Shown here piece after piece: positions 1 to 25,563 of a DNA stretch of 64,000 nucleotides. Source of the stretch: a virus. The stretch is taken from IMG/VR virus record IMGVR_UViG_3300012952_000020, positions 13,537 to 77,536 of that record; one strand, 5' to 3'. Positions within the stretch are counted from its first letter, which is position 1. Each line of letters opens with the position of its first letter. Both the position numbers and the translations under genes were made by a program. Below the pieces are notes generated by a model. That model saw only the letters and a program-made list of their open reading frames with translations. It ran no database searches and was not told the origin of the DNA.

Positions 1-573
1 CCACTGCGGTATGCACTGGATTCGACCTCGCGACGTGACCGACAGGGGATTCGGTGACGAGTGGGTCGCAATCGACGGAAGCCCCGCTGACGGCTTGCCG
101 AAAACAACCTGCTCCAGAAACGCCCGCCGTGTCCATTGGGGCTTGTCTCGGAAACACTGCCCTCCGAACTCCACCAAGTCGAAGGCCATGAACTGACCTG
201 TCAACTTTCGCCGCTTCGACCAGTTGGTGCCGAACATGAACTCCCCGTGAAGCACGATCCGACTCCCGCCGACTGCGTACCCCGTGTCGTCCTCTCCCGA
301 GTCCCGAAAGTAGCCCCAAGGACTGAATGGGACCGCCAGCTTGAACTCATCCTTCAAGGTTCCGTTTCGGGAGTAGACCTTGACCGAGGTTCCCTCAATC
401 ACCATCTGCCCCCAGATGCCATCGCCTTTCAACTCAACGACGTTCCAAGGTGGCTCCGGGTTGCCCTTCCACTGGAGGACGCTCTGCCCTGCCGCCTCGT
501 ACTTGAATCGTACGTTGGTGAACTTCGGACGGTTCAGAACCATCCCCTCGTAGACCTTCTGCTTGGTTCCCAT
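1..573 (-). CDS. ATP-dependent DNA ligase (N-terminal adenylation domain; runs off window)
   Basis: Translated by hand from ATG at 573 (GGAGG RBS): motif I ELKGDG, VYSRNG, motif III VLHGEF, motif IIIa FMAFDL..G....P...RR.FLE. Absent from the ORF track because it has no stop in the window. Confidence 0.85.
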   Translation of the reverse strand, partial: MGTKQKVYEGMVLNRPKFTNVRFKYEAAGQSVLQWKGNPEPPWNVVELKGDGIWGQMVIEGTSVKVYSRNGTLKDEFKLAVPFSPWGYFRDSGEDDTGYAVGGSRIVLHGEFMFGTNWSKRRKLTGQFMAFDLVEFGGQCFRDKPQWTRRAFLEQVVFGKPSAGLPSIATHSSPNPLSVTSRGRIQCIPQW

Positions 574-998
574 CACTCACCTCCTTCGACTGGTCGTCGG
601 TACTCGGTGGGGAGTTCCACGACCTCCCCGTCATTTGTGACGCCGAGGTGCTCGTGCTCGTTCTCCCCTCCCCAGTCATTCAAGTCCTCTGCAATCTCCG
701 GGATCGTGAACATCACGTTTGCCCGAACAGCGCCGTTGCTTTCGGGGTCCATCGCCGTGATGGTCCTTGCCCCGATGTACCCGTCGTACCTCGCCAGCGC
801 CAAACTGTCGTTCTCACCTTCCAGCAACTCCCGCATACGCTCTGCGAGCCTTGCAACGGCGATGCCCATGTCCGTCAGACGTTTGCGTGGGGAGTAGTCG
901 AGGAAGTCCTCACCGCACTCCGTAAACTCCCCACTCATTTCATCGACCAGCCTATCGACCATGATCTCAATGTCCTCTCGTTCCAAGTTGCTACTCAT
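573..998 (-). CDS. hypothetical protein
   Basis: 141 aa acidic ORF, translationally coupled to both neighbours. Confidence 0.7.
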   Translation of the reverse strand: MSSNLEREDIEIMVDRLVDEMSGEFTECGEDFLDYSPRKRLTDMGIAVARLAERMRELLEGENDSLALARYDGYIGARTITAMDPESNGAVRANVMFTIPEIAEDLNDWGGENEHEHLGVTNDGEVVELPTEYRRPVEGGE

Positions 999-1729
999 TT
1001 CGCACCTCGCTTGCCGAACGCCTGCTCGACTTCTTCCTGTGACTCAAACCGTTTGAGGACCATTTGGGTCAACGTACCCTCTGGCGTGATTGCCGCCTCC
1101 GTCAGACTCTCTTTCAAGACTTGAAGGAACGGTGTGCTCGCTATCCGGGCAACACCGTTAGCCTTGTTCGCCTTGGCACAGTGCTCCGGGTCTTCCGTCG
1201 AGAACCACGTACGGCAGTTCCAAGGACGGTGCTCGTAGACTGAACAGGCACCATCGACCAACAGTGGACAGGGCGTGTTCGATGCCTGCGCTTCCCTGAA
1301 CATCGCCTTCGCCGTGCGCTTGTCATCCTTCTCCAGCATCCTTCGGACATGCCGTGGACCGAACAACGCTTTTCGGAAGTAACCTTCCTTGTCCTTGATT
1401 GGCGACTGCCCAGCGAACCGTTCCATCCACTCTGACATGTTGTCCTTGACCCGAAGACGAACTGGCTCCGGCAGGTTGTGGATTGCCACCGTCAGGACAA
1501 TCGCCTCTGCCGGATTGATCTCGACGCGCTCGTAGCAACAGGCTGTGCAGCCTACGCCGAGGCACTTGATTTCCGAGAGGCTTCCGTCTGCCTTCATCCT
1601 CTCGACCATACGGTCTGCCTGTTGAAACAGACCCATCACGAACTCGTAGACACGCTCCGTGATGTCCTCTCCGTCTGGTCCTTCGACCAGCGGCTTGCCG
1701 CCCACTCGGGGCATAATCAACTCATCCAT
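995..1729 (-). CDS. YkgJ-family cysteine-cluster (Zn/Fe-chelating) protein
   Basis: CxxxGCxxCC ... CPLL..GACSVYEHRPWNCR signature. Confidence 0.85.
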   Translation of the reverse strand: MDELIMPRVGGKPLVEGPDGEDITERVYEFVMGLFQQADRMVERMKADGSLSEIKCLGVGCTACCYERVEINPAEAIVLTVAIHNLPEPVRLRVKDNMSEWMERFAGQSPIKDKEGYFRKALFGPRHVRRMLEKDDKRTAKAMFREAQASNTPCPLLVDGACSVYEHRPWNCRTWFSTEDPEHCAKANKANGVARIASTPFLQVLKESLTEAAITPEGTLTQMVLKRFESQEEVEQAFGKRGAK

Positions 1730-1988
1730 TGGACACTCCTTTCAGTCCGGCTTGCTCGATGCTCGCCATCTTCCTGTTGAACTCGACCTTGGTGATGTGG
1801 GTTCCGATTGCCGAGCGCACGGTCAAGAAGATGCGCCAAGGTGTCATACCGAACTCGATGGTTGCCTGATCTACGAGATTCACCAGCGCCCTTGTTTGCT
1901 CGTCGGTGGAGCAGGGCCAAGCGAACCTCAACCAATCTCCGAACGTCGGGGCCTTGCCCAACGTCGGTTCCTTGTGTTTCGTACTCAT
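1722..1988 (-). CDS. hypothetical protein
   Basis: Start reassigned to MSTKHK at 1988 (GGAGG RBS, ATGA overlap). Confidence 0.6.
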   Translation of the reverse strand: MSTKHKEPTLGKAPTFGDWLRFAWPCSTDEQTRALVNLVDQATIEFGMTPWRIFLTVRSAIGTHITKVEFNRKMASIEQAGLKGVSNG

Positions 1989-2389
1989 GCTGTCCTCCAC
2001 TGCACTGTGGAGCGGAGCCATTTCCAAAGCCGGATGTACCAAGGGAGCCTGACGACCAGCGGTGCCGGGTGCGTCTTGCTCTCCTTCCACTCAAGGAACG
2101 GGACGCCGGGATCGACTCTCCTATACATGGCGTACTCCCTGCGGAGCATCGCCGTTCGACTGACCGTTCGGTACGACCAGCCTCCGTTGCCGTGGTACTT
2201 GCTCCACCCGTGTTGGGGAATACCGACCTGCAACCCAGCCTTGACGCACATGTCCCATACGCCTGACTTGGTTCGCCGTTGTCCTCCAGGTCCAGTGCTG
2301 GTGACTGGACCGAACACGAATGAACCGTCCTCCAACTCCGTCAGCCAAGGGATGCCTGTGTTCGTTGGTTCTCCAGTAGCCGCCCTCAT
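1985..2389 (-). CDS. hypothetical protein
   Basis: Coupled ORF with GGAGG RBS. Confidence 0.6.
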   Translation of the reverse strand: MRAATGEPTNTGIPWLTELEDGSFVFGPVTSTGPGGQRRTKSGVWDMCVKAGLQVGIPQHGWSKYHGNGGWSYRTVSRTAMLRREYAMYRRVDPGVPFLEWKESKTHPAPLVVRLPWYIRLWKWLRSTVQWRTA

Positions 2390-2580
2390 TGGACACCTCC
2401 CTTCTCCAAGTCACGCTTGTAGGACTGTGCCTGCATCCGTGAGCACCCACTGACGATGGGTCGGGCTTCTCCGTGAAAGACAACCCCTCGGTGTCCTTTG
2501 GGGAGATCCGACTTGCGGAAGACCGCCCAACTGTAACTGTCATCGCCATTGAACTTTCGCAACGTGTATGCCGGTTTCAT
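2386..2580 (-). CDS. hypothetical protein
   Basis: MKPAYTLRKF start at 2580, ATGA overlap with the upstream gene. Confidence 0.6.
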   Translation of the reverse strand: MKPAYTLRKFNGDDSYSWAVFRKSDLPKGHRGVVFHGEARPIVSGCSRMQAQSYKRDLEKGGVQ

Positions 2581-2807
2581 TCGACACCCCCGTTCTGCTC
2601 GACGTAGCACTCCTCGTACGCTGCCTTGTGACCTTCGTACGTGAAGTTGACTCCTGCATCTTCCAGCTTCGCCGTGGCACAGTCGTAAGCCGACCACCAG
2701 CGAGCCTCCTTTGCCGGTTGCGCTACCAGAATCCAGTAGCCCAATCCGACAACCACGATGGCTGCAAAGAACAGCCCTGCCAACAGTTCCTTTGTGCGCT
2801 CGCTCAT
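2577..2807 (-). CDS. small membrane protein
   Basis: N-terminal hydrophobic helix LLAGLFFAAIVVVGLGYWILV; GGAGG RBS. Confidence 0.65.
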   Translation of the reverse strand: MSERTKELLAGLFFAAIVVVGLGYWILVAQPAKEARWWSAYDCATAKLEDAGVNFTYEGHKAAYEECYVEQNGGVE

Positions 2808-3064
2808 GCTTCACCTCCACCGAAATACTCTGTGGAGTAGGTGACGATCCAAGGAGCGTTGCCCGCACCTTTCTGCATCGCCTTGTAGATGCACGTTTCA
2901 CCGAGGAACGCGACGATGGTTCCTGCGTCCTTGTCGTGCTCGACCTTGAAGCCCTCAAGCCACACCATGTGCTTCACGAGGTCCATCACCTCCTTGTGGG
3001 TTCCGAGGCACGAACGCCTTGGGCGTACTGGACTGTTTGCAAATCCTTTTACTGCTGCTTCCAT
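2804..3064 (-). CDS. hypothetical protein
   Basis: 86 aa ORF with GGAGG RBS. Confidence 0.65.
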   Translation of the reverse strand: MEAAVKGFANSPVRPRRSCLGTHKEVMDLVKHMVWLEGFKVEHDKDAGTIVAFLGETCIYKAMQKGAGNAPWIVTYSTEYFGGGEA

Positions 3065-3119
3065 TTTACTATCCTCCGTCCTCTCGGACTTCTTCGGGTA
3101 GGTTTACCCTTGTTTGTCA

Positions 3120-3185
3120 ATGACCTGTCTCATCAGCACGGGGAGGTCATCTTCCGTGGACTCCCCCCGAAGGGGGAGTTTCGAC
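3120..3185 (-). ncRNA. hammerhead ribozyme, type II, with loop I pseudoknot
   Basis: Minus strand: GUC-GAAA-CUCCCCC(UUCG)GGGGGAG-UC^-CACGG[AAGAUGACCUCC]CCGUG-CUGAUGA-GAC-AGGUCAU. Complete core; loop AUGACCU pairs with 3' AGGUCAU. Predicted cut between 3159 and 3158. Confidence 0.93.
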
Positions 3186-3187
3186 TG

Positions 3188-4576
3188 TTACTTCTTCCGC
3201 TGCTGCAACAGGTGAATCATCGCCTGCGTAGCAAGGTCCAACTGCCGACGCTCATGGGCAACGTCACCGTCATCCCCTGCGAGGTGAGCGACCTCGTGGA
3301 ACATGACCTCGATGGTGTCTGCCAAGTTGCCGACCGTCTTCCGACTCAGGCAGATGACCTTCTCCCCTGACTTGAAGGTGCCTCGCACATCATCACCCTC
3401 GAACTCCACGACGTTCACATGTGAGAGCACGTCGTACTCGAAAGTGTCCGTTGCGTCCGTTGCCTGAATCAACCTGCACGCATCGTCGATGTTCTCCTGC
3501 TCCTGATCCGTCAGGTCATCCCAACTGTACGTCTGCGTGACCGTCATCCTCCCGTCCCGCTTGGCGAGGTGGAAGCCTTTGATCCGGGTGTCCTGCTCCA
3601 GAACCTCCAATCGGCTTCTGCCTACCACAACGCCCTTCTTGCCAACGTGTGCCAGCTCCTTGGCTTGGGACAGGTTCTCAACTGGAACTGCGCCTTCACC
3701 GTGCTTCCCGAGGAACCGATCTCCGATGTGCTTGACCACTGTGGAATCGTTGACGAAAGCGTAAGCCTGCTGCGCCTCCATCGCATTGGGATTGTCCAGC
3801 ACCGCTTCGACGTGATCCCCGAACTCATCCGGCTCATCCCTGAAAGCGGCGACGGTCAGCTTGCCCAGCGCCCACTTCAAATCCCACTCGTCCACCAACT
3901 CACGGTCACGATTGGTTGCCCGTCGGAGGTCGTACCCGTAGGACAGATTGTCCGGTCGCTGCATCACCAGCACGCCCTTGTTGAAGATCATGCCCTTGAA
4001 CTCAGGCTGGAGTAGAATCCGCTCGCCCTCGTACCCGACCGTCTTCACCTTCTCCGGGTCGAACGCCTCGTTGGTGAACAGGAACCGATTGCGGAGAGCA
4101 TCGTACTCCTCCTGCGATACCCCGTACACCTTGACCAAGAACCCTTCACGCGGGTTCTTCAACTTTCGTGTACGGATGTGGAGCGTGTGACAGTCGAGGT
4201 CGCCGTGATGCCTAATCTCGGGAATCCACTGCTCGTCCATGTTCCGAATCACCATGTGGTATCGGCTCGACCGAGCGATGGTCAACATCGCCATCGGCAG
4301 TCCCTCTCCGAACTCACCAATCAGGTTTGCATCACTGCGGGAACCCGAATGGCCCATCGCCATCGCCTCTGCCGGAACCTTGATACCGAAGTTGTAGATG
4401 TTGACGCAGCCGACGAATCCCTGATGCTCCTGCTTCGGGTGAAACTCGACTTTCAGCTTGCCGAGTCCGTCATGCCTGCTCTCCTCTCCGTCCTTGCCGT
4501 TCGCCATCAACTCTCGCAGTGCGTGGTTGATGTTCCATCCCGGCTGATAGTTCATATCCAGTGTCGTCTTGATCAT
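3188..4576 (-). CDS. GHKL (HATPase_c-like) ATPase with C-terminal HEXXH zinc-metallopeptidase motif
   Basis: ALRELMANGKD (N-box), IYNFG, GHSGS..IGEFGEGL (G2 box); C-terminal FHEVAH...H. Confidence 0.8.
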   Translation of the reverse strand: MIKTTLDMNYQPGWNINHALRELMANGKDGEESRHDGLGKLKVEFHPKQEHQGFVGCVNIYNFGIKVPAEAMAMGHSGSRSDANLIGEFGEGLPMAMLTIARSSRYHMVIRNMDEQWIPEIRHHGDLDCHTLHIRTRKLKNPREGFLVKVYGVSQEEYDALRNRFLFTNEAFDPEKVKTVGYEGERILLQPEFKGMIFNKGVLVMQRPDNLSYGYDLRRATNRDRELVDEWDLKWALGKLTVAAFRDEPDEFGDHVEAVLDNPNAMEAQQAYAFVNDSTVVKHIGDRFLGKHGEGAVPVENLSQAKELAHVGKKGVVVGRSRLEVLEQDTRIKGFHLAKRDGRMTVTQTYSWDDLTDQEQENIDDACRLIQATDATDTFEYDVLSHVNVVEFEGDDVRGTFKSGEKVICLSRKTVGNLADTIEVMFHEVAHLAGDDGDVAHERRQLDLATQAMIHLLQQRKK

Positions 4577-4632
4577 GCTACTTTTCCTCCGTCCGTACCC
4601 TCCCCTCGGAGGGTGTTGGACTTCTATGGTTA

Positions 4633-4694
4633 CTCCCCTGTCTCATCAGTACAGGTAGGGGAAACTTCCTGTAGACCCCGTTAGGGGTTTCGAC
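4633..4694 (-). ncRNA. hammerhead ribozyme, type II, with loop I pseudoknot
   Basis: Minus strand: GUC-GAAA-CCCC(UAAC)GGGG-UC^-UACAGG[AAGUUUCCCCUA]CCUGUA-CUGAUGA-GAC-AGGGGAG. Loop UUCCCCU pairs with 3' AGGGGAG. Predicted cut between 4674 and 4673. Confidence 0.93.
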
Positions 4695-5722
4695 TATTTC
4701 TTGCTCGCCTTGCGCCTGATGTACTTGGCGTTCGCAGCCACTCGCTGCGACCTCGACTTCTTCTCGACCTTGACCGTTTCCTTCGCCACTCGAATCTTGG
4801 CTCCTGCGCCCTTCTCGATTGCGAAAGCGTGTGCCTTCGCCTCGGCATCGGCTCCGGTGAACCTCCACCACTTCCGACCGCCCTTGACCTTCACCTCGTA
4901 CCCGACGACCTTCTCGTACGTCTCCGTCGCTGGTCTGCGCTTGGGCAACGCCGACTGCCCCTTGGCATCTGCGTACCTTGCCCGCTTCCCACTGTGCCAG
5001 CACTTCTTGGGACCGACTCGCTTCTTGTGAGCCTCGACATCCTCGGGGGCGAAGAACTCTGCCGTTGCCACCAACCCTGTCGTCTTCTTGCTCCAGTCCC
5101 ACACGGCTGGGAGGACTGCCAACTTCCTTCCCCACTTGTCGGTACGCCACTTGGGTTCGTTGATGTTGTACTTGGGTACGTCTGCGGCTTCAATAACTGG
5201 GATGCGTACGAACACGATGGCGGGTGACTCGCAGGCGACCACGACCTCCAGAATGTACTTGTCAGCACCGGGCATCCGACTGATTCGGTGGGCGAAGTCC
5301 TTTCGGAAGTAGTCCTTGACCACGACCCACCGGCTACCGAGAAGGCACTTGTTTCCGCTCACCGTATCGGCAACCTTCTCCGTGCGCTTCGCCCTCGCAG
5401 CCTTCTTCCGACGACGGGTTGCTGTGGCCCGCTTCGCTGCTGACCGTCGGACCTTCTTCATCACGAACTTCTCAGCCTCGGTGTACACCTCGTCCTGCGT
5501 GTCGTGGTCTGCCTTGTTCACTGCGGCGACTGCTGCGGTGACCAACTGGTAGAATGTTTCCTCGTCCCTGTCGGGATTGCACTTGGGGTCGTTCTCGTTC
5601 GCCTTGTGGAACTTCGCACCCCACTTGGCGATCCACTTGTTGTGTCGCTCCGTGGGGGTCACGCCACGGGAGGTGGTCTGGTCAGTCCCCAAACCGGGCA
5701 TTGAGTTTCCGAGGCCGATCAT
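4694..5722 (-). CDS. hypothetical highly basic (Lys/Arg-rich) early protein
   Basis: 342 aa ORF, GGAGG RBS, downstream of a strong promoter. Confidence 0.75.
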   Translation of the reverse strand: MIGLGNSMPGLGTDQTTSRGVTPTERHNKWIAKWGAKFHKANENDPKCNPDRDEETFYQLVTAAVAAVNKADHDTQDEVYTEAEKFVMKKVRRSAAKRATATRRRKKAARAKRTEKVADTVSGNKCLLGSRWVVVKDYFRKDFAHRISRMPGADKYILEVVVACESPAIVFVRIPVIEAADVPKYNINEPKWRTDKWGRKLAVLPAVWDWSKKTTGLVATAEFFAPEDVEAHKKRVGPKKCWHSGKRARYADAKGQSALPKRRPATETYEKVVGYEVKVKGGRKWWRFTGADAEAKAHAFAIEKGAGAKIRVAKETVKVEKKSRSQRVAANAKYIRRKASKK

Positions 5723-5895
5723 GCTGCACCTCCACCGCCGACGATTGAATCGTACCCGGCGAGGTATCCGACGCTGTGGTCCTGTCGCTGCTTGCCAGCT
5801 TCGGCATCCTGTGCGCCCTTGGCGTAGTCCTCGTTCCAGTTTTCAACGAGTGGCGAACTCGGTGTCGGGAACTTGATTGTCAACTGCTGTGTCAT
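5719..5895 (-). CDS. small hypothetical protein (58 aa)
   Basis: MTQQLTIKF...GGGAA*; AGGAGG RBS; ATGA overlap with the next gene; below the ORF-track cutoff. Confidence 0.6.
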   Translation of the reverse strand: MTQQLTIKFPTPSSPLVENWNEDYAKGAQDAEAGKQRQDHSVGYLAGYDSIVGGGGAA

Positions 5896-5973
5896 TCGAT
5901 CCTCCTGCCTTTCGGCTTTCTACGGTTTTCATAGAGACTGCGTCTTTATCTCTTTCTCAATCTCTATATATAT

Positions 5974-6002
5974 AATATAGCATGTTTACAGGGGTTTGTC
6001 AA
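5974..6002 (-). promoter_or_regulatory. sigma70-type promoter with extended -10
   Basis: TTGACA-17 bp-TATATT preceded by TGC; nearly identical to the promoter at 32575-32603. Confidence 0.85.
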
Positions 6003-6055
6003 GCACTTTCTTTTACGCGATCACCCGAGCGTTTTCGCCGCGTCTGTGGGCTACT

Positions 6056-6520
6056 CTACGATTTTTGACCCGGAAGCTGGATCAAACCGTGCCGCATGTG
6101 AAACGCTGACTCTCCGGGGCCGGGAAACTCATCCGACACCCAAACTTCGACTCGTGGCTCTCCTCCAACCTCGGCGTAGACCTTGAGCGTGGCTCCCGCT
6201 ACCACCTGTGAATCGTCCGTCCAACAATCCTTCATGGCGTCCAGCACGATCTTCCTGATGTTGTCCATGTCCGGTCGAACGGTGGCCCAAAGAAATCCTT
6301 TGTGGTCCTTCTTCCGATGGTACTTCTTCGGTCGGGGTAGGACCGCGAGAATGTCAACTCGTACTGGACCCTCCAGCTTCTCCGTGATTGCCGCCCGAGC
6401 GAAGATACCAGCCTTGGTTTCCCACTGCTTCGTACGCTTGGGCGTGTACATCCCAAAGCGCCCTTGCCTCGGTCGTCCCTTTCCTATCGGAGCCAACTGG
6501 ATTGTGAACTTCTCCCTCAC
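6056..6520 (-). CDS. rusA: RusA-family Holliday junction resolvase
   Basis: GKGRPR...RPDMDNIRKIVLDAM...WTDDSQVV; GTG start at 6520 overlapping the upstream stop. Confidence 0.88.
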   Translation of the reverse strand: MREKFTIQLAPIGKGRPRQGRFGMYTPKRTKQWETKAGIFARAAITEKLEGPVRVDILAVLPRPKKYHRKKDHKGFLWATVRPDMDNIRKIVLDAMKDCWTDDSQVVAGATLKVYAEVGGEPRVEVWVSDEFPGPGESAFHMRHGLIQLPGQKS

Positions 6521-6900
6521 TCCTTCCCCCAAAGGCTCGGCAGGTACTTGCGCCACTGGAACCAAGGTCGCTCATACAGGTACAGGGTTTGGGAGTCGTG
6601 GTTGTACGCTTCCACCTCAAACGGATTCATCCTGTATGCCTTCTTCCCGCTGCGGTGCGTCACCAACCCGATGAGGAAGAACAGCCCGTACAGAATCCAC
6701 TGAAACACGAATAGCAACTCCAACTGCTGCCTGTAGTGGATCGTTTCGTGCCTCCGCGTCCGTTCGTTCATTTCGCCTCGACACCAAACAAAGAAGCCGA
6801 TGCTGATTGCCCAAATCTCAATGGGTGCAACCTTGCTCAACCAAACTGGAACCTTGCTGTTCTCCACCATGATGGGTGACAGCCACTTCTTGCCTTCCAT
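6517..6900 (-). CDS. putative zinc metallopeptidase-like protein
   Basis: RRHETIHYRQQ...NPFEVEAY (HEXXH plus downstream E). Confidence 0.7.
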   Translation of the reverse strand: MEGKKWLSPIMVENSKVPVWLSKVAPIEIWAISIGFFVWCRGEMNERTRRHETIHYRQQLELLFVFQWILYGLFFLIGLVTHRSGKKAYRMNPFEVEAYNHDSQTLYLYERPWFQWRKYLPSLWGKE

Positions 6901-8477
6901 TACTCACCTTCTGGATCGGGGTGTGATACCGATACCGATGTTGCCTCAATGACCTTCGCCGTGTTTGTAAGCCTGACCTCTTGTGGAGCACCTGACTCAC
7001 CGAACTGGTCGAGAGGACTGTTATCCTCTGTCTTCAACGACTCTGCTGGACTGGTCCCTCCTGCCCTACCGTAGCCGCCGAACATCTTGGCGATGATGCC
7101 TGAGCCTTTCGCCTCGATCTTGATTGTGTCCCTGTCGTCGGTCATAGCCTTTATCTGCCCGCACAGCCCGACAAAGTTCTTCAACTCCTTGGACACCTCC
7201 GGGTCGAGAAGACCGCCTTTGACACGCTCCGTAGCCAACGCAAACTGTAGCCTGTCGAACGCCTGCGTCATTAGCTGACGGAGCATCGACCCGAGATCGC
7301 CTGTCGTGGGTTGACCCGCTGCGTCTACAGGAGTGAACGGGACCGTACACTCTGAACCTTGCTTGAAGAACGGACACTTATCTGCGATGTAGCACTGGTC
7401 ACACCATCGACCAATCTTCGCCGTCTGATCCAACTCCCGCTTTTCGGGCATCGCCAAAGCCGTGATCTGCGGTCCTTCATCCAACGCCTTCACTACAGGA
7501 TCGTTACGGTGCTGCATGTCGATGACGGTTTGGTACTCACACCAGACCGCCGCGTTGTACCTATTGACTGCGTACGGATCGTCAGACACCAACTCGTCGT
7601 GACTGATGTGGTACTTCTCGCACATGTCCTTGATCCATGGATTCGTCCTACGAATGTCCTTGTTCTTACTGTCAGCCGTTTTCAACTCGTTGCCTTTGAG
7701 GTGGTACGTCACTCCGTACTGCTGCCCCGCCAGCCAAGAGGTTGAATCCACAGAGTAGAACGAGAGGTTCCTAAAGACCTCCTTGTTCGTCATGGCGAAT
7801 CCGTGAACCGGCTTCTGGTACTTGTTCGACATAGCCAGCAACGGCAGGTAGTCATCCCGAGGCCAACCACCAGCGAGTCCCAGATACTTCATGTTCGGGT
7901 TCTTACACCACTCTTCCCAAATGAGCATCCGAGCCGCTTGCCTCTGCGGTGCCGCGTCGTTCTGTGCATCCCAGCCTGACTCGCCTCCGAGAAGACCACG
8001 AGTAACCAGCGTGTTGTACTCGATGGACTTGTGATACACCGGGACCGGGTAGACCTCATCTGCCCACATGTCATCGCGCCATTTACGGACCTTGCCCATA
8101 CCGACGCCTTTGACAGCACCAATATCCAGTTCAACGTACTCGTTGAAAAACTCCCCGTACTCCTTCAACCATGCGTGGTACTTCCGCATGTATTCTTCCG
8201 GGGCATCCGTCTTCTGCGTTGTGCCTTGTTTGTGCTTGAACAGCGACGTGCTCAACTGACCGTGAGCCGAGAAGAACGTGTGAGCGCCAGAGTCGAGCAT
8301 ACACCACGCATCGATCTCCTTCATCTTCTCCAGCAAGGCGTGAAGCGTCGCCTTCTTCATACGCTTCATGTAGAAATACGACATGAGGATCTGCAACGGC
8401 TTGTCCGTGTACTGCCCTACATGGCACAAGTCCTTGAAGTGACTCTGACTTTGCGCTCCTGCGAGTAGTACCCTCAT
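6900..8477 (-). CDS. DpdA/TGT-like 7-deazaguanine DNA transglycosylase with Cys4 C-terminal extension
   Basis: SYFY, LDSGAHTF, VELDI, PVYH, VHGFAMT, YSVDSTSWLAG..YG motifs of TGT-fold phage enzymes; adjacent to folE/queD/queE. Confidence 0.75.
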   Translation of the reverse strand: MRVLLAGAQSQSHFKDLCHVGQYTDKPLQILMSYFYMKRMKKATLHALLEKMKEIDAWCMLDSGAHTFFSAHGQLSTSLFKHKQGTTQKTDAPEEYMRKYHAWLKEYGEFFNEYVELDIGAVKGVGMGKVRKWRDDMWADEVYPVPVYHKSIEYNTLVTRGLLGGESGWDAQNDAAPQRQAARMLIWEEWCKNPNMKYLGLAGGWPRDDYLPLLAMSNKYQKPVHGFAMTNKEVFRNLSFYSVDSTSWLAGQQYGVTYHLKGNELKTADSKNKDIRRTNPWIKDMCEKYHISHDELVSDDPYAVNRYNAAVWCEYQTVIDMQHRNDPVVKALDEGPQITALAMPEKRELDQTAKIGRWCDQCYIADKCPFFKQGSECTVPFTPVDAAGQPTTGDLGSMLRQLMTQAFDRLQFALATERVKGGLLDPEVSKELKNFVGLCGQIKAMTDDRDTIKIEAKGSGIIAKMFGGYGRAGGTSPAESLKTEDNSPLDQFGESGAPQEVRLTNTAKVIEATSVSVSHPDPEGE

Positions 8478-9658
8478 TTGCCAACCCTACCTGCGATGCG
8501 CGACTTATCCTGATCGGGGAGTTCCCCGTCCTTCCCTATCTTCCAATCCTTGACCGGAAGACCGCCACGACCATCCATCATATTTACCAACTTTGCCTTG
8601 TTTGTCAAGAACCGCTTTTCCACATCCTTGATGATGTACTGGGCGATTGCTTCTGCTACCCGACCTTGGTTGCTTCCGAACAACAGGTCACATCGAGACA
8701 GCCTCTTTGACCTCATTGGATCGACCGATGGCTTCTCAGCCCACTCCAATGCTGCGTCCACAACTATTCTGGCTTCCTCTGTTGCCGTGAACTGTAGGAA
8801 CACGTCCCTCCAACGGTACGAGTCATCCTCGGTATCGAACGCCGTGGTCGTGGGCAAACCCTTCAACCCTGCGCCGTGTCGGTCCTTCCACCACTCCCAA
8901 CTGTTGTACGCGATGACAGGTCTTCCCGTGGCGAGGAACATGAACAGGGCAGACCCGGTATCTCCTATGAGGACTGCCGCCTCATCGAAGTGATCCGTAA
9001 CATCGTCCTCTCCGCTGGTACATTCCACGTTGTCGTACTTGTTGACCACATCGAAAGTCTCCGTGAGAGATCCTTTGTCCGTGTGCGGGTGCATAGCCAC
9101 AACAATCTTGTAGCCCCGAGAACGATAGTAGCCTGCGTGGTTCTCGATGAACTCCCTCACCCATCGAAGGTGGGAACAGAACCGCTGATTCCACGTCGGA
9201 GCCAACAGGATTGTCTTGCCAGTAGCCTTGCCTTGGCGAACCGAATCCATCTGGACGTACCCGAGCGGCACCTGTCTGGACGTGTCAATGCCACGAGCCT
9301 CTGCCTGTTGGACTGCGTACCAAGATGCCACAAACTCACTGACCACCTGCTTTGGTTTGACGTGGTACGTGTGGTTCTTGTTTGAGCCGACTCCGTGGTG
9401 GATGTGGTAGACTGGGAGGTTCGCTTCCTCGACCTCCCTACGAGCGGCGAAGGTCCAGTTTGCCGTGATAGCTACATCGCCTTCTCGGAAGTCCGGCACA
9501 TCGTTACGCATCGCCTCGTAGTCCATCCAGTACGGTCGAATGTCCAAGTCAGGCTTCAACGCCAACAGTGCGTCTGCCACCTTCTGACACAGCACCAGCG
9601 TAGACTTCCTGTAATACAGCATCCAGATGACTGGACCTCTTTCCTCTTTAGTTGCCAT
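8474..9658 (-). CDS. CDP-glycerol:glycerophosphotransferase (TagF/TagB-like) family protein
   Basis: IHHG, LGYVQMD, ILLAPTWN, AMHPH, VLIGDTGSALFMFLATGRPVI motifs. Confidence 0.8.
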   Translation of the reverse strand: MATKEERGPVIWMLYYRKSTLVLCQKVADALLALKPDLDIRPYWMDYEAMRNDVPDFREGDVAITANWTFAARREVEEANLPVYHIHHGVGSNKNHTYHVKPKQVVSEFVASWYAVQQAEARGIDTSRQVPLGYVQMDSVRQGKATGKTILLAPTWNQRFCSHLRWVREFIENHAGYYRSRGYKIVVAMHPHTDKGSLTETFDVVNKYDNVECTSGEDDVTDHFDEAAVLIGDTGSALFMFLATGRPVIAYNSWEWWKDRHGAGLKGLPTTTAFDTEDDSYRWRDVFLQFTATEEARIVVDAALEWAEKPSVDPMRSKRLSRCDLLFGSNQGRVAEAIAQYIIKDVEKRFLTNKAKLVNMMDGRGGLPVKDWKIGKDGELPDQDKSRIAGRVGK

Positions 9659-10643
9659 TTGACTTCTCCTCAAAGCAATCCATTAGTTTCGACAGTACGC
9701 AGTCCATGTCGTACTGCTTTACTTTGTGCCAGCTATGTGGAGCGGTCAGGGCGTGCCTTACCTTCTCCCGAATGTCCGAGATCGAGAACGGGTCATACAT
9801 CCCGTCCTCCAGATACTCGGTGTAGGGTGCCATGCGTGGTGCCACGGGGCTTGCTCCAGATGCGATGCCCTCAATGACTGACAGGTTGAGCGTGTCCCAA
9901 CCTCCCGCAGTCACAACTACCTTTGAGCGAGCCAACAGATCCTCGTAGGTGCTGCCTCGGCACTCCATCAACACTGCGTATCCTAACCGCTGTAGGTACA
10001 CAGCCATCTTGACCTTCTGTGACTTGCCTCCCTCGGGACTATCCGCACTCTCACCTGTGGCGAATACTACTCGGTCGGAGAACGGCTCCAACGCCTTTGC
10101 CAGCAACGGCAACTGCTTCTCATGGGCGAACCTGCCTGTGACCGCAATCAACGTCTTCGGGGCTGTGGCTACGTCGAACCTACTAAAGTCCATCGGGAAC
10201 CCAATGATCTTTGCCTTGTCTGCTGCCTTGTCTCCGTAGTGCTTACGGATAGCCTGCTGGTGCGCCACGCTGTTGATCGTGACGAACTCCAAATCTCGAT
10301 ACAGTTGTGACTGGTCGGGGGTGCGAGCGCCCATCATCACGTCACAGAACTGACCTGTCTCTACGCCTCCGTGCGAGTGCGTAGCCACCTTCTCTCCCAT
10401 GCCCAGTAGCATGGGGATAGACCAATCGTCCGAACGGATGACGTACCACAGGTCAGCCTGCGGTGACGATTTCAGACTGTCTTGAACTGACTCCTTGGGA
10501 AGACCGAACACCTCAACCTGTGTGACTGTGTATCCTCGGTCCTCAAGTCCCGAGCAAACGGCCTTGGCGAAACCGCCAGACCAGTTTCCGGGTTGGGTCT
10601 GCGTGACGACGTTGATCCTATATCGCCCTTTCCTTGTTGCCAT
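9648..10643 (-). CDS. GT-B (GT4-like) glycosyltransferase
   Basis: GRFAHEKQ; DTLNLSVIEGIASGASPVAP..PYTE. Confidence 0.8.
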   Translation of the reverse strand: MATRKGRYRINVVTQTQPGNWSGGFAKAVCSGLEDRGYTVTQVEVFGLPKESVQDSLKSSPQADLWYVIRSDDWSIPMLLGMGEKVATHSHGGVETGQFCDVMMGARTPDQSQLYRDLEFVTINSVAHQQAIRKHYGDKAADKAKIIGFPMDFSRFDVATAPKTLIAVTGRFAHEKQLPLLAKALEPFSDRVVFATGESADSPEGGKSQKVKMAVYLQRLGYAVLMECRGSTYEDLLARSKVVVTAGGWDTLNLSVIEGIASGASPVAPRMAPYTEYLEDGMYDPFSISDIREKVRHALTAPHSWHKVKQYDMDCVLSKLMDCFEEKSNGN

Positions 10644-10668
10644 GTCTTGCTCCTATGTCTGGTGTTTG

Positions 10669-11439
10669 TCACTTGTTTAGCTCCGCGAATAGTGCCTCAA
10701 CCATTTTCACGTCTTCCGGGGTGTCGAACTCGATTACCGTTTTCTCCCCTATCTCTAACGCCTTGAAGGACATGTCGGACTCGTCAATCAGCTTGTCGAA
10801 CAGATCCTCGTAATACAGTTTGGAAGCGTAGGGACCGTACGCCAAGTGGAACGCTACTGCTGCTGGTGGAGACAGAAAGTAGATGCCTACTGTTTCGCCT
10901 CGACACTCAGCGGGTTCCAATCCCTTGCCGATACGCAGGATCTTACCGTCCTGCTTGCCGCCCTCCACGCAGATTGCTTTGACTTCTTCCTCTGCGACTG
11001 TGCTTGGGTCCAGCAACGCTGTGGATACGCCGTGCTCTGCCATGTCCCTAATCACTTCGCTGAACATTGGGTGGGCAATCACGAGGTCTGCGTTGGTGAC
11101 ATAGACTCCCTCAAAGCCGAGCATCGTCCTACCGCCAGAGTTTGGTACGAGATCGTTCATCCCGAGATCCAAAGACGCTGCGGTCTGCGTGGTTGCGTAC
11201 TCCGGGTTCACCACGAAATCCCAAGTGACGTTTGCCCAAGTCATCATCACTTCGTTCGCAGCATCCATCACCTTGTCACGCTTGTACCCGACTACAAATC
11301 GGACGTGATCAACGTGTGGGAGAAACGGCTCCAAAAGTCTGTCCAGCACAACACCGTAGTCATCGAACCGCATCAAGCACTTCGATGCCCCTCCGAGTCG
11401 TTTGGCTCTACCAGCCGCCAGCACAATAAGACCTTTCAT
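10669..11439 (-). CDS. NTP-transferase, LicC-like (phospho-alcohol cytidylyltransferase family)
   Basis: IVLAAGRAKRLG..KCL; NPEYATT...SL; NADL; EEEVK; EFDTPED. Confidence 0.82.
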   Translation of the reverse strand: MKGLIVLAAGRAKRLGGASKCLMRFDDYGVVLDRLLEPFLPHVDHVRFVVGYKRDKVMDAANEVMMTWANVTWDFVVNPEYATTQTAASLDLGMNDLVPNSGGRTMLGFEGVYVTNADLVIAHPMFSEVIRDMAEHGVSTALLDPSTVAEEEVKAICVEGGKQDGKILRIGKGLEPAECRGETVGIYFLSPPAAVAFHLAYGPYASKLYYEDLFDKLIDESDMSFKALEIGEKTVIEFDTPEDVKMVEALFAELNK

Positions 11440-11478: not shown

Positions 11479-12024
11479 CTACAGCCTCTCCACCATGAAT
11501 GATTCGACGGGTCGGTCTGCGAAGTCCATCCTACGCAGGAACTCTGCCTGCGAGTTGTGAGACAAGATTGCTCTACGCTTTGTCCTCCAGTCATCCTCGG
11601 TTGGTAGAAACGACACGTTACTCTGAACTCCTATACCGAAAGTGGCGAACACTCCGTCCCACTTCTTGTCCTTTAGGTACTGCTTCACTGCTTTGTGGAC
11701 TTCCACATGCTCTGGGTGCAGATTCAACTCTCCGATATGACTGTGGGTCAGTACCATGTCCCACTCCTCGATACGCTGCTTCTGCAACTGCTCCTTCAAG
11801 TCTACAAAATCATCCCAACCATCCAGCATGACTGGTCGAGCGTTGTAGTGCTTGCACGCAGCCTCGAACTCGGCTTCCCTCTCGGGACTACCGTACTCTC
11901 CCTCACGCTCCGGGGAGCAACAGATGAACGTCAACTCTACGCCGAGCCGTTTCAACATAGACAGGGTGGTCCCAGCCCAAAGGCACTCGTCATCCGGGTG
12001 CGCTGTGATCTGTACCAACCTCAT
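11479..12024 (-). CDS. PIG-L/LmbE family deacetylase
   Basis: AHPDDE; R..EF; THS..GE..HPEH; HNSQ. Confidence 0.85.
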   Translation of the reverse strand: MRLVQITAHPDDECLWAGTTLSMLKRLGVELTFICCSPEREGEYGSPEREAEFEAACKHYNARPVMLDGWDDFVDLKEQLQKQRIEEWDMVLTHSHIGELNLHPEHVEVHKAVKQYLKDKKWDGVFATFGIGVQSNVSFLPTEDDWRTKRRAILSHNSQAEFLRRMDFADRPVESFMVERL

Positions 12025-16489: not shown

Positions 16490-16808
16490 GTTCCATAGCT
16501 CCTGTAGTTTCGGTTGGAATAAATCGGTACAGCATCCCGTCTTGTGGCTCACAAGAAACCTCGGTCAACTGAACCCTGCGTTGTTGTTTTGTGGAATACA
16601 AAAAGTCAGTGAGGACCGTCCACATAGCCCACACCATTTCCTCTGCCGTGTACCGCTTTTCAACCATAGACGGCCAATACTTTTGGGCAATCTCTCCAAG
16701 GTCTACGTCGAGGATACGCTGCTCGTCTGACAGTTCCTCGCACGACAAAACGACATGGAAAGTTGCCCTTGGTTTGTCAAGATGTATCGCCTGCTCCAGA
16801 ACGTGCAT
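16482..16808 (-). CDS. hypothetical protein, possible degenerate QueD/T-fold paralogue
   Basis: Coupled to queE (TAATG); YTAEEMV..MW..L...V.L..V resembles the QueD C-terminal TAE motif; no metal-binding His. Confidence 0.5.
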   Translation of the reverse strand: MHVLEQAIHLDKPRATFHVVLSCEELSDEQRILDVDLGEIAQKYWPSMVEKRYTAEEMVWAMWTVLTDFLYSTKQQRRVQLTEVSCEPQDGMLYRFIPTETTGAMEHG

Positions 16809-17707: not shown

Positions 17708-18256
17708 TCAATAAATCCTTGCACTGTTTTTGTCGTTCTCACGAACCTCAACTGAATGAAGCCACACGCGACCGCCTGTTTCCTGTAGAAGCCAGTCATC
17801 GACCCACTTCTTGACAAACTCACAGGTTCCTTCCATGCCCACATCCTCGTACACTACGAGTTTGCAAGCACCCTTGGATTCCAGTTCCCTAAACTGTGGT
17901 ATCAGCGGGTCGTCAGAATCCAAAAGCAACGTGTGATCGAACACGTCCTCCAGCCACGCTTTGACAGCCTTCAGTTTCCCGAAGTCCATAACGAAGCCGT
18001 TTTCTGTTCGCTCCTTGGCACGAAACCAAAAGGTGAAACTTCTGCTGTACCCATGCACCAAAGCACAATGGTCACTGTGCTTGTGGCGGCGATGAGCACA
18101 AGGAAAGTTCCTGAACGTCTTTGACGACTCTATCACTGGGTGGTCGCTTGACTCGCTTCTTTTGCCCGTCAGCCACATACCGAATCGCCTGCACTGCTTT
18201 TCGTACCATAACACCACCTTTGCGAGATCCCTCGCACTCTCCCTGTCGTGGACCAC
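17708..18256 (-). CDS. queD: 6-carboxy-5,6,7,8-tetrahydropterin synthase
   Basis: CAHR...HCALVHGYS, VMDFG, FDHTLL, VRENDKNSA. Start uncertain (GTG 18256 or GTG 18136). Confidence 0.9.
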   Translation of the reverse strand: MVHDRESARDLAKVVLWYEKQCRRFGMWLTGKRSESSDHPVIESSKTFRNFPCAHRRHKHSDHCALVHGYSRSFTFWFRAKERTENGFVMDFGKLKAVKAWLEDVFDHTLLLDSDDPLIPQFRELESKGACKLVVYEDVGMEGTCEFVKKWVDDWLLQETGGRVWLHSVEVRENDKNSARIY

Positions 18257-24822: not shown

Positions 24823-25563
24823 CTAACACCCGTCAGGTGTAAGGTCACGAAGCCTCCGAGTCATTGACTCTACTCTGGAGGTGTACGTTTCATTGTCCAC
24901 GCACCTGTTACCCTGATTGTAGTGACAGATGCCTTTCCTTCTGTCCCGTAGTCTACGGATGAACCTCGCACATACGCCTGCGGAATACTCTACGCTTTGT
25001 AGCTCCGCGCACTCGTCAGCGACGGTCCTTCCAGAATCTCGTAGCCAACTCCGATTGCCGGTGTAGCCATACGAATACTTTGCCTGCTGTTGAAACATCC
25101 CGCACGACCTTCCTTGGTCGCCAGTGACGTTCTCCGTCCACCGGCTCTCGACATACCCAACTGCTGCCAGTTCGTATACGTCAACACCTTCGTACAAGGC
25201 TGCGAGGATCATCGCCGCTGCGAACCTGCGAGCGTCCTCCAACTCCAACCTCGGTTGGACCTCCTGCATGGCGTTAGCCAAATAGTACACGTAGTCCCTG
25301 ACTCCTGCCTCATGTGCAGGGATGGACGTGTCTACGCAGCACTCTGGACACTTAGCACAGTGGTCCTCGACGTAGCGTTGATGCCAGTTCTCCTGCTCCG
25401 GGTCAGGCTCCGGTTCGGAAACTGGTTCCGAGGTGGGTGCCTCTGTGGTCGGTTCGGGAGGACTCTCCGGTTCCTCGCCTCCGCAACTGCCAAGGTAGCT
25501 AATGATGCCTACCGTCAACCCTGTCACTATTCCGTACACAAAGTACCGTGCTATCGCCTTCAT
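24823..25563 (-). CDS. membrane-anchored lytic transglycosylase (SLT-like)
   Basis: N-terminal TM, Pro/Glu linker, AV.YVESRW, GD...SCG.FQ, HYNQG. Confidence 0.75.
   Translation of the reverse strand: MKAIARYFVYGIVTGLTVGIISYLGSCGGEEPESPPEPTTEAPTSEPVSEPEPDPEQENWHQRYVEDHCAKCPECCVDTSIPAHEAGVRDYVYYLANAMQEVQPRLELEDARRFAAAMILAALYEGVDVYELAAVGYVESRWTENVTGDQGRSCGMFQQQAKYSYGYTGNRSWLRDSGRTVADECAELQSVEYSAGVCARFIRRLRDRRKGICHYNQGNRCVDNETYTSRVESMTRRLRDLTPDGC

Follow-up and report, generated by a model that had tools for sequence, protein, structure and literature searches.

Type II hammerhead ribozymes in an operon of an uncultured marine phage and the probable processing of its transcript around a GHKL-HEXXH gene

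Clusters of hammerhead ribozymes are known from prophages. Perreault et al. (2011; PMC3088659) describe multiple hammerheads that flank individual genes or small groups of genes, propose a function in mRNA processing, and raise the idea of circular or spliced products; all ribozymes of three tandem arrangements cleaved in vitro, and those of one arrangement did so in E. coli. Weinberg et al. (2019; PMC6765202) repeat the idea of polycistronic processing and refer to the biology of these ribozymes as largely elusive. By cyPhyRNA-seq (PMC8782182), the 2',3'-cyclic phosphate (2',3'-cP) and 5'-hydroxyl (5'-OH) ends of three type II hammerheads in the vicinity of phage-like genes were recorded in total RNA of D. 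vulgaris. Here we report on three type II hammerheads, named HH-A, HH-B, and HH-C, in an operon of an uncultured marine phage. The first two bracket a gene for a protein of 462 amino acids, termed P0001, with predicted GHKL ATPase and HEXXH regions. The DNA is a 77.5-kb linear virus record of IMG/VR (IMGVR_UViG_3300012952_000020) with a completeness estimate of 78%, from which a window of 64,000 nucleotides (bases 13537 to 77536 of the record) was analyzed. Window coordinates are used unless the prefix G000:C1 marks those of the record. The role of bacterial and phage hammerheads is little understood, and this locus provides a compact example, with three ribozymes and one isolated 1.4-kb gene.

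As far as described by Perreault et al. (main text; 2011; PMC3088659), the prophage clusters share with this locus same-strand hammerheads in intergenic positions, including ribozymes of type II, a pseudoknot between loop I and the 3' tail, and flanked genes of variable identity. The locus differs from them in its source, an uncultured marine phage, in the GHKL-HEXXH gene, and in the abutment to stop codons as a rule. The hammerheads of D. vulgaris, as reported in the cyPhyRNA-seq study (PMC8782182), are likewise of type II and near phage-like genes, and two of them are ~310 nt apart on one strand; they are bacterial-chromosomal and experimentally supported, whereas those studied here are known from sequence alone. 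The layout has already been described for phages, and the present locus is a new instance of it around a GHKL-HEXXH gene. Retrozymes and viroid-like RNAs are also bounded by hammerheads; they are not known to code for proteins, and rod-like folds hold their ends together. Their repeated units of ~150 to 1,000 nt, as treated by de la Pena et al. (2020; PMC7761336), carry type III or type I hammerheads and circularize. The unit around the GHKL-HEXXH gene resembles these RNAs (PMC7761336) in being bounded by two hammerheads with ligatable cleavage ends. Unlike retrozymes, it has type II ribozymes with an open 3-bp stem II, measures 1.5 kb, and is coding; its termini lack complementarity and its flanks are not repeated.

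Structure and placement of the three hammerheads

The hammerheads are located on the minus strand, as are the genes around them (Table 1). In HH-A, stem II is formed by GUC (4694-4692) and GAC (4642-4640), the core consists of GAAA (4691-4688) and CUGAUGA (4649-4643), and C17 corresponds to position 4674. Stem III has 5 bp (ACCCC/GGGGU) and a UAAC loop, stem I has 6 bp (UACAGG/CCUGUA), and a 7-bp pseudoknot links the tail AGGGGAG (4639-4633) with UUCCCCU of loop I. In HH-B, GUC (3185-3183) pairs with GAC (3129-3127) in stem II, CUGAUGA occupies positions 3136-3130, and C17 is position 3159. Its stem III has 8 bp and a UUCG loop, stem I has 5 bp (CACGG/CCGUG), and the pseudoknot of 7 to 8 bp joins the tail AGGUCAU (3126-3120) to AUGACCU of loop I. 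Both copies possess a GUC cleavage triplet, a G10.1-C11.1 pair, closed stems I and III, and an open 3-bp stem II of the sequence GUC/GAC. Beyond the core and stem II, they have in common only the short leader stretches AGAAGUCC and GGACGGAGGA, and they are not direct repeats. Six base pairs are altered on both sides between HH-A and HH-B (two in stem I, one in stem III, and three in the pseudoknot), and all of them still pair. This comparison involves two sequences, was made without statistics, and used the stems of the structural parse; a MAFFT alignment was left aside because it misplaces stem III of HH-B.

The first base of stem II in HH-A is the G of the TAG stop codon of the upstream open reading frame (ORF), and stem II of HH-B starts 2 nt past a TAA stop codon (3190-3188). 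Cuts after C4674 and C3159 are predicted to release a piece of 1,515 nt (4673-3159) with a ribosome-binding site (RBS) and the whole ORF of P0001 (4576-3188). An earlier note on this DNA had described two complete type II hammerheads at these places, stems that differ between the copies yet pair, a stop codon at or just before the start of each copy, and the excised piece; the base-for-base reading of core, helices, and pseudoknot bears out this description, the positions and the arithmetic agree, and the start at the stop codon is also a rule of the subtype (see below).

HH-C, the third copy, has a CUGACGA core, GAAA, a GUA cleavage site (A17), stems II, III, and I of 3, 10, and 8 bp, respectively, and a 4-bp pseudoknot adjoining stem II. 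The residues of the catalytic core (CUGANGA, GAAA, A15.1-U16.1, H17, and G10.1-C11.1) are present in all three copies. HH-A, HH-B, and HH-C are on the coding strand and intergenic, start 0, 2, and 8 nt past the preceding stop codon, which for HH-C is that of a 91-amino-acid ORF, and leave 55, 54, and 33 nt to the next ATG. The phage thus has three same-strand hammerheads in the intergenic gaps of one operon, as is characteristic of clustered hammerheads. Since HH-C is on the same strand, HH-A and HH-B are not a closed pair, and the operon is punctuated three times.

The gathering cutoff of the Rfam family RF02276 (Hammerhead_II) is 37 bits, and HH-B exceeds it with 40.1 bits (E value of 3.1e-8 in a single-family genome search). 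HH-A was detected only in a search of 201 nt or in the single-family genome search and was missed in a search of the whole window at an E value of ≤10, which indicates that the speed filters lose such copies. Our own type II descriptor, which demands the core, 3 bp or more in stem II, and 4 bp or more in each of stems I and III, gave five matches in 221,534 bases, three of which are in this genome, and none in each of 20 first-order Markov resamples. The pattern CGAAA-N20-50-CTGATGA matched twice, compared with a mean of 0.28 in shuffled sequences, and 4 of 100 shuffles reached 2. For type II hammerheads, Perreault et al. (2011; PMC3088659) give as a criterion that loop I and the nucleotides just past stem II form a pseudoknot with 4 bp or more. 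Taken alone, the pseudoknot is weaker evidence, as 1,751 of 20,000 loop shuffles attained the 7 bp of HH-A and 95 of 20,000 the 8 bp of HH-B.

The sequences show the motifs, their placement, the covariation between HH-A and HH-B, and the occurrence of the same arrangement in other phages; what we infer, as probable, is that three cis-acting type II hammerheads cut one polycistronic phage transcript into linear mRNAs. Ribozyme processing of a polycistronic transcript, which the earlier note had offered as its alternative, fits the three same-strand intergenic copies, the stop-codon placement, and the published layout. The transcript would start at the promoter at position 6002, and each ribozyme would fold and cut itself while being transcribed. 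Four pieces would result, namely, (i) a first one with ORFs of 58 and 342 amino acids, (ii) the 1,515-nt piece with the GHKL-HEXXH gene alone, (iii) a block of ~4.6 kb that would be headed by the 86-amino-acid ORF past HH-B and would include genes for a ligase-like protein and a polynucleotide kinase (PNK)-like protein, and (iv) a piece with the genes past HH-C. Pieces upstream of a cut would have the stem III hairpin and a 2',3'-cP at their 3' end, 20, 29, and 42 nt past the stop codon for HH-A, HH-B, and HH-C, respectively, whereas those downstream would carry a 5'-OH and open with the stem I/pseudoknot structure, at 97, 94, and 75 nt ahead of the start codon. A likely outcome would be that stability and translation of neighboring cistrons are uncoupled. 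In all three leaders past the ribozymes, a small hairpin directly precedes the RBS. The synthetic RiboJ insulator consists of a hammerhead followed by a hairpin just upstream of the RBS, and the three leaders resemble this layout.

A number of results weigh against processing. (i) HH-A (29.5 bits; E value of 1.9e-5 in the single-family genome search) and HH-C (34.7 bits) score under the cutoff of RF02276, although both match the model over its full length. (ii) The 4-bp pseudoknot of HH-C is no better than chance, since 5,801 of 20,000 loop shuffles reach it. (iii) In a nested-fold estimate, with pseudoknots outside the model, the mean probability that the Shine-Dalgarno sequence and AUG are unpaired was 0.38 in the cleaved and 0.54 in the uncleaved RNA for HH-A, 0.51 and 0.63 for HH-B, and 0.46 in both for HH-C. 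The estimate gives no sign of a freer RBS after cleavage, and the proposed benefit for translation is therefore without computational support. (iv) Whether a 5'-OH end stabilizes or destabilizes an mRNA depends on the RNases of the host.

The scores of HH-A and HH-C under the Rfam cutoff would also accord with motifs that do not cleave in vivo and are only structured intergenic hairpins, serving as exonuclease barriers or protein-binding sites, and some clustered hammerheads may be non-functional according to Perreault et al. (2011; PMC3088659). We regard this as very improbable, given that all nucleotides of the catalytic core are present in the three copies, that the stems covary around a fixed core, and that a copy at the junction of HH-A is kept in a related locus at 38% protein identity (see below).

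Table 1. Coordinates of the hammerheads and of other features of the locus
Feature	Coordinates	Strand	Details
HH-A, type II hammerhead	4632..4695	-	Full RF02276 model 1-66; cut between C4674 and U4673; record coordinates 18168-18231
HH-B, type II hammerhead	3119..3186	-	Cut between C3159 and C3158; record coordinates 16655-16722
HH-C, type II hammerhead	G000:C1:12019-12095	-	34.7 bits, E value 7.9e-7; 1.4 kb beyond the window and 4.6 kb downstream of HH-B
Leader of the HH-A 3' product, 97 nt	4577..4673	-	Stem I hairpin and pseudoknot at 5' end; GUCC...GGAC hairpin; RBS GGAGG 4590-4586
P0001, 462 amino acids	3188..4576	-	Hsp90-like GHKL ATPase N-terminal and middle region, C-terminal HEXXH (SprT-like) region (predicted)
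Upstream ORF, 342 amino acids, function not assigned	4694..5722	-	TAG stop codon 4696-4694
ORF downstream of HH-B, 86 amino acids, function not assigned	2804..3064	-	RBS GGAGG 3077-3073
ATP-dependent ligase-like gene, 351 amino acids	G000:C1:13057-14112 (5' part = window 1-576)	-	PF01068 30.8 bits; KxDG
AAA_33 PNK-like P-loop gene, 229 amino acids	G000:C1:12371-13060		Directly after ligase-like gene; look-alikes include N4BP2-type and CNPase-type PNK-like domains
Sigma-70-like promoter	5974..6002	-	TTGACA, 17 nt, TATATT, with TG; hexamers 11/12 matching
TTGACAAAC copy next to HH-B	3112..3120	-	First T is last base of HH-B pseudoknot tail
RusA-like resolvase	6056-6565		Phage marker by PHROG match
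Queuine tRNA-ribosyltransferase-like (DpdA/TGT-like) gene	6900-8477		Phage marker, phrog_887

Stop codons and conservation in related loci

We searched IMG/VR for the exact type II pattern with a GUC/GAC stem II and found at least 119 viral loci. The matches listed among these loci number 147, with 138 distinct contexts; an upstream frame was defined as one of at least 60 codons that ends at most 400 nt upstream, and 138 of the 147 listed matches have such a frame. Among the matches listed, (i) the stop codon is -6 to +4 nt from stem II in 107 of the 138; (ii) the median stop codon is 1 nt upstream of stem II, compared with 26 nt to the next start codon; (iii) the upstream gap is shorter than the downstream gap in 113 of 128; (iv) a UAG whose G opens stem II occurs in 51 of 147; and (v) 19 locus-strands carry 2 to 7 same-strand copies at a spacing of 260 to 1,810 nt, with arrays of up to 7 copies within 3 kb (locus L073). 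Since a GUC/GAC stem II is common to at least 119 viral contigs, its identity in HH-A and HH-B is a property of the subtype and not an adaptation of the pair. In the same way, the 107 of 138 listed stop codons at stem II make the start at a stop codon a rule of the class. The main text by Perreault et al. (2011; PMC3088659) contains the term "stop codon" 0 times. Among the papers listed by a literature search, none is on this topic by title, which is not proof that the rule is unpublished.

We then inspected 28 distinct loci with relatives of P0001 (locus L009 was excluded since it is on the same contig as L004), using all Rfam families at an E value of ≤1 and the descriptor. Rfam scans by E value can miss weak copies, and the descriptor, which added no further copy, missed the copy of L011, which has a bulged stem II; for L016, L027, and L030, the search covered loci of 8.7 to 11.3 kb. 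Type II hammerheads were found in 3 of the 28 loci (L011, L012, and L007), always on the strand of the gene, whereas the other 25 had no hammerhead in the DNA scanned, and the whole records of L004 and L005 gave none at an E value of ≤1. In L011, the hammerhead precedes the GHKL gene by 324 nt and starts 1 nt past the stop codon of a homologue of the 342-amino-acid ORF (35% identity over 153 amino acids, E value of 9e-15), which has the same position before a hammerhead. This is the same gene junction as that of HH-A, and the two ribozymes have the same 5-bp ACCCC/GGGGU stem III, while the GHKL proteins are 38% identical. The copy of L012 is one gene further upstream; the stop codon of an unrelated 533-amino-acid ORF shares its last base with the first model position of this copy. 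In L007, the hammerhead lies about 12 to 13 nt past the stop codon of the GHKL homologue itself; this UGA is in the loop of an 8-bp hairpin (GUGGAGGG/CCCUCCAC, positions 1385-1413 of L007) that ends 5 nt before the hammerhead match.

Flanks were counted for loci with at least 150 nt available on the relevant side. A hammerhead was present upstream in 2 of 24 loci and downstream in 1 of 18, and it bracketed the gene in 0 of the 14 loci for which both flanks are available. The earlier note had proposed to check whether homologues of the gene are also flanked by ribozymes; among these loci, the bracket is not conserved. The persistence of the HH-A-junction copy in L011 at 38% protein identity is an argument for this ribozyme being kept by selection, and it is not an argument for a two-ribozyme unit. 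Both the conserved junction and the stop-codon rule argue for a role of the ribozymes in setting the 3' ends of mRNAs immediately downstream of coding regions.

The close association with stop codons may have a further consequence. During termination, the ribosome would sit on stem II, GAAA, and part of stem III, and cleavage could be gated by translation and depend on ribosome traffic along the upstream gene, which would be a refinement of processing into linear mRNAs. The distances between stop codon and stem II (0 to 8 nt in the three copies and 1, 0, and 12 nt in L011, L012, and L007), the positions of the stop codons and the frequency of the shared UAG among the listed members of the class, and the UGA of L007 in a hairpin loop just before the ribozyme are all in line with such gating. 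The same placement would, however, result from compact genomes and the need for a short 3' untranslated region with a hairpin at its end, and folds of HH-A, HH-B, and HH-C with 45 nt of upstream sequence show no alternative hairpin that would take in the stop codon or mask the site of the cut. We thus consider gating rather unlikely, although it deserves more weight than the other alternatives discussed here.

The genes next to the hammerheads vary among the relatives, the ribozyme being upstream of the GHKL gene in L011, a gene further upstream in L012, and downstream in L007, and the identities of flanked genes are not constant in the clusters of Perreault et al. (2011; PMC3088659). This variation would be expected if hammerheads were the borders of exchangeable cassettes and the GHKL-HEXXH gene a module moving between phages. 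A number of observations make such a role very improbable: the GC (guanine plus cytosine) content of the cassette, 0.56 to 0.58, is like that of the neighbors (0.54 to 0.61) and shows no anomaly, HH-A and HH-B are not direct repeats, neither an integrase nor a reverse transcriptase is associated with the cassette, and hammerheads are absent from the scanned DNA of 25 of the 28 homologue loci.

We also observed that a stretch of 21 nt, composed of the hairpin GCC-GAAA-GGC and AGGAGGA, is common to the leader of the GHKL gene in L011 (1405-1437) and the leader past HH-C (G000 ~11985-12010). To judge from these two sequences, it may be a conserved hairpin module that precedes the RBS.

Linear pieces or a circular mRNA

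According to the earlier note, joining the ends of the excised piece would rebuild an intact hammerhead and give a retrozyme-like, protein-coding circle. For this to occur, both ribozymes would have to cut, and the 1,515-nt piece would have to be closed into a translatable circle with a chimeric hammerhead by host RtcB, by the reverse reaction of the ribozyme, or, once the ends are healed, by phage enzymes such as the PNK-like and ligase-like proteins of the operon. The topology permits such a product: stem III is on the 5' side of the cut, stem I and the entire pseudoknot are on its 3' side, and GUC/GAC is common to the two halves to be joined, the 5' one from HH-B and the 3' one from HH-A; this part of the claim stands. 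RtcB joins ends of this kind (PMC8782182), and the same operon has adjacent genes for an ATP-dependent ligase-like protein and a PNK-like P-loop protein. The best NCBIfam matches of the ligase-like protein are to nonhomologous end-joining and LigD ligase domains, all far under the cutoffs. Judging by these family similarities, the two proteins, whose genes are between HH-B and HH-C, may form a pair for the healing and sealing of ends, with DNA or RNA as substrate.

The remainder of the claim fares less well. A helix of just 3 bp would be all that keeps the two ends of the 1,515-nt piece together. The duplex between its last and first 110 nt has a free energy of -49.1 kcal/mol, compared with a shuffle mean of -50.9 kcal/mol, and 183 of 300 shuffles reach an equal or greater stability; the minimum-free-energy fold of the entire RNA has 0 pairs that link its first 120 nt to its last 120 nt. 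In the Tornado system, RtcB closes twister-cut RNAs, and designs that form circles add a complementary stem that joins the ends; unlike these, the 1,515-nt piece has no end-joining complementary stem. The GUC/GAC stem II that would be shared by the chimeric ribozyme is general to the subtype, the third hammerhead in the operon points to serial processing, and brackets were seen in none of the homologue loci with both flanks. As for the enzymes, RtcB, RNA_ligase, and RVT_1 were not found in the phage record, which is 78% complete; the ligase-like protein matches DNA ligase families, and a 2',3'-phosphoesterase was not found. Circular or spliced products were not detected by Perreault et al. (2011; PMC3088659), who mention this as data not shown, and the ends of the D. 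vulgaris type II hammerheads that were recorded by cyPhyRNA-seq (PMC8782182) are unjoined 2',3'-cP and 5'-OH ends. We therefore judge a circle highly improbable, the least credible of the alternatives. If true, it would be a protein-coding circular RNA made by a DNA phage and of great consequence, but the sequence lends it no support.

The bracketed gene and its surroundings

P0001 matches phrog_6077 (E value of 9.3e-42), a family of function not assigned. It had no Pfam match at an E value of ≤0.01, and its only match at an E value of ≤0.1 is DUF6782 (0.064), which is neither HATPase_c nor SprT-like; a match to HtpG has an E value of 0.12. We retrieved 16 relatives, 15 of which were aligned with P0001 (alignment A1, from which P0017 was excluded). 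Three motifs stand out in this alignment, namely, (i) ExxxNxxD, in which E22, N26, and D29 are nearly invariant, (ii) GxFGEG, in which G87, F89, G90, E91, and G92 are invariant, and (iii) HEVAH...H, in which H427, E428, H431, and H441 are nearly invariant. Of the 16 sequences in the alignment, 6 match HATPase_c (best E value of 1.7e-5) and 6 match SprT-like (best E value of 2.7e-4); P0001 is not among them in either case. An AlphaFold model of P0001 has a predicted local distance difference test (pLDDT) score of 87.3, and its top Foldseek matches are Hsp90 chains (E value of 3e-8, template modeling score of 0.38). Conserved motifs and the modeled fold thus support, at the family level, the assignment to Hsp90-like GHKL proteins (N-box, glycine-rich lid, and Bergerat fold) with an added region that is a putative HEXXH metallopeptidase. 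The label GHKL-HEXXH, given to the gene before, is reasonable at that level, in view of the motifs, the HATPase_c and SprT-like matches of relatives, and the Hsp90 fold match. A search of viral contigs with the single P0001 sequence returned no related loci, and a search of genome contigs with the alignment returned none. At the nucleotide level, blastn of window positions 2000 to 8000 against phage sequences gave no match. Short contig pieces from four sequencing runs, two of which apparently belong to one data set, match inside the GHKL ORF only, and none extends to either ribozyme; a search for sequencing runs with this DNA listed no RNA run.

The sigma-70-like promoter is the sole promoter-like site in window positions 1 to 8000, and no terminator-like site of the minus strand was found between it (6002-5974) and the hammerheads. 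It is likely that the transcript carrying HH-A and HH-B starts there. The 342-amino-acid ORF has no Pfam or PHROG match, and the 86-amino-acid ORF (2804..3064) has no family match in either database. The phage context is deduced from the PHROG matches of the RusA-like and DpdA/TGT-like genes and from the source, a virus record.

The promoter overlaps one of 22 exact copies of TTGACAAAC in the window, 20 of which are on the minus strand and most of which are shortly 5' of genes (for example, at 6002, 8608, 11474, 23638, and 32603); the whole record contains 29 copies. With one mismatch allowed, there are 32 matches, compared with a shuffle mean of 17.2, and 0 of 100 shuffles reach 32. Three copies are followed 17 nt on by TATAAT or TATATT and many others by TAnnnT-like hexamers. 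From its sequence and distribution, TTGACAAAC is probably the -35 part of phage promoters. The copy next to HH-B may likewise be a -35 element, but a -10-like hexamer is absent at 16 to 18 nt from it.

Two further observations concern other parts of the window. A match to the fluoride riboswitch model at 25448-25518 on the plus strand (22.9 bits, with a cutoff of 34; E value of 0.05) is probably due to chance. The minus-strand region 6900-11439 contains the DpdA/TGT-like gene and, upstream of it, genes for a TagF-like glycerophosphotransferase and a GT4-like glycosyltransferase.

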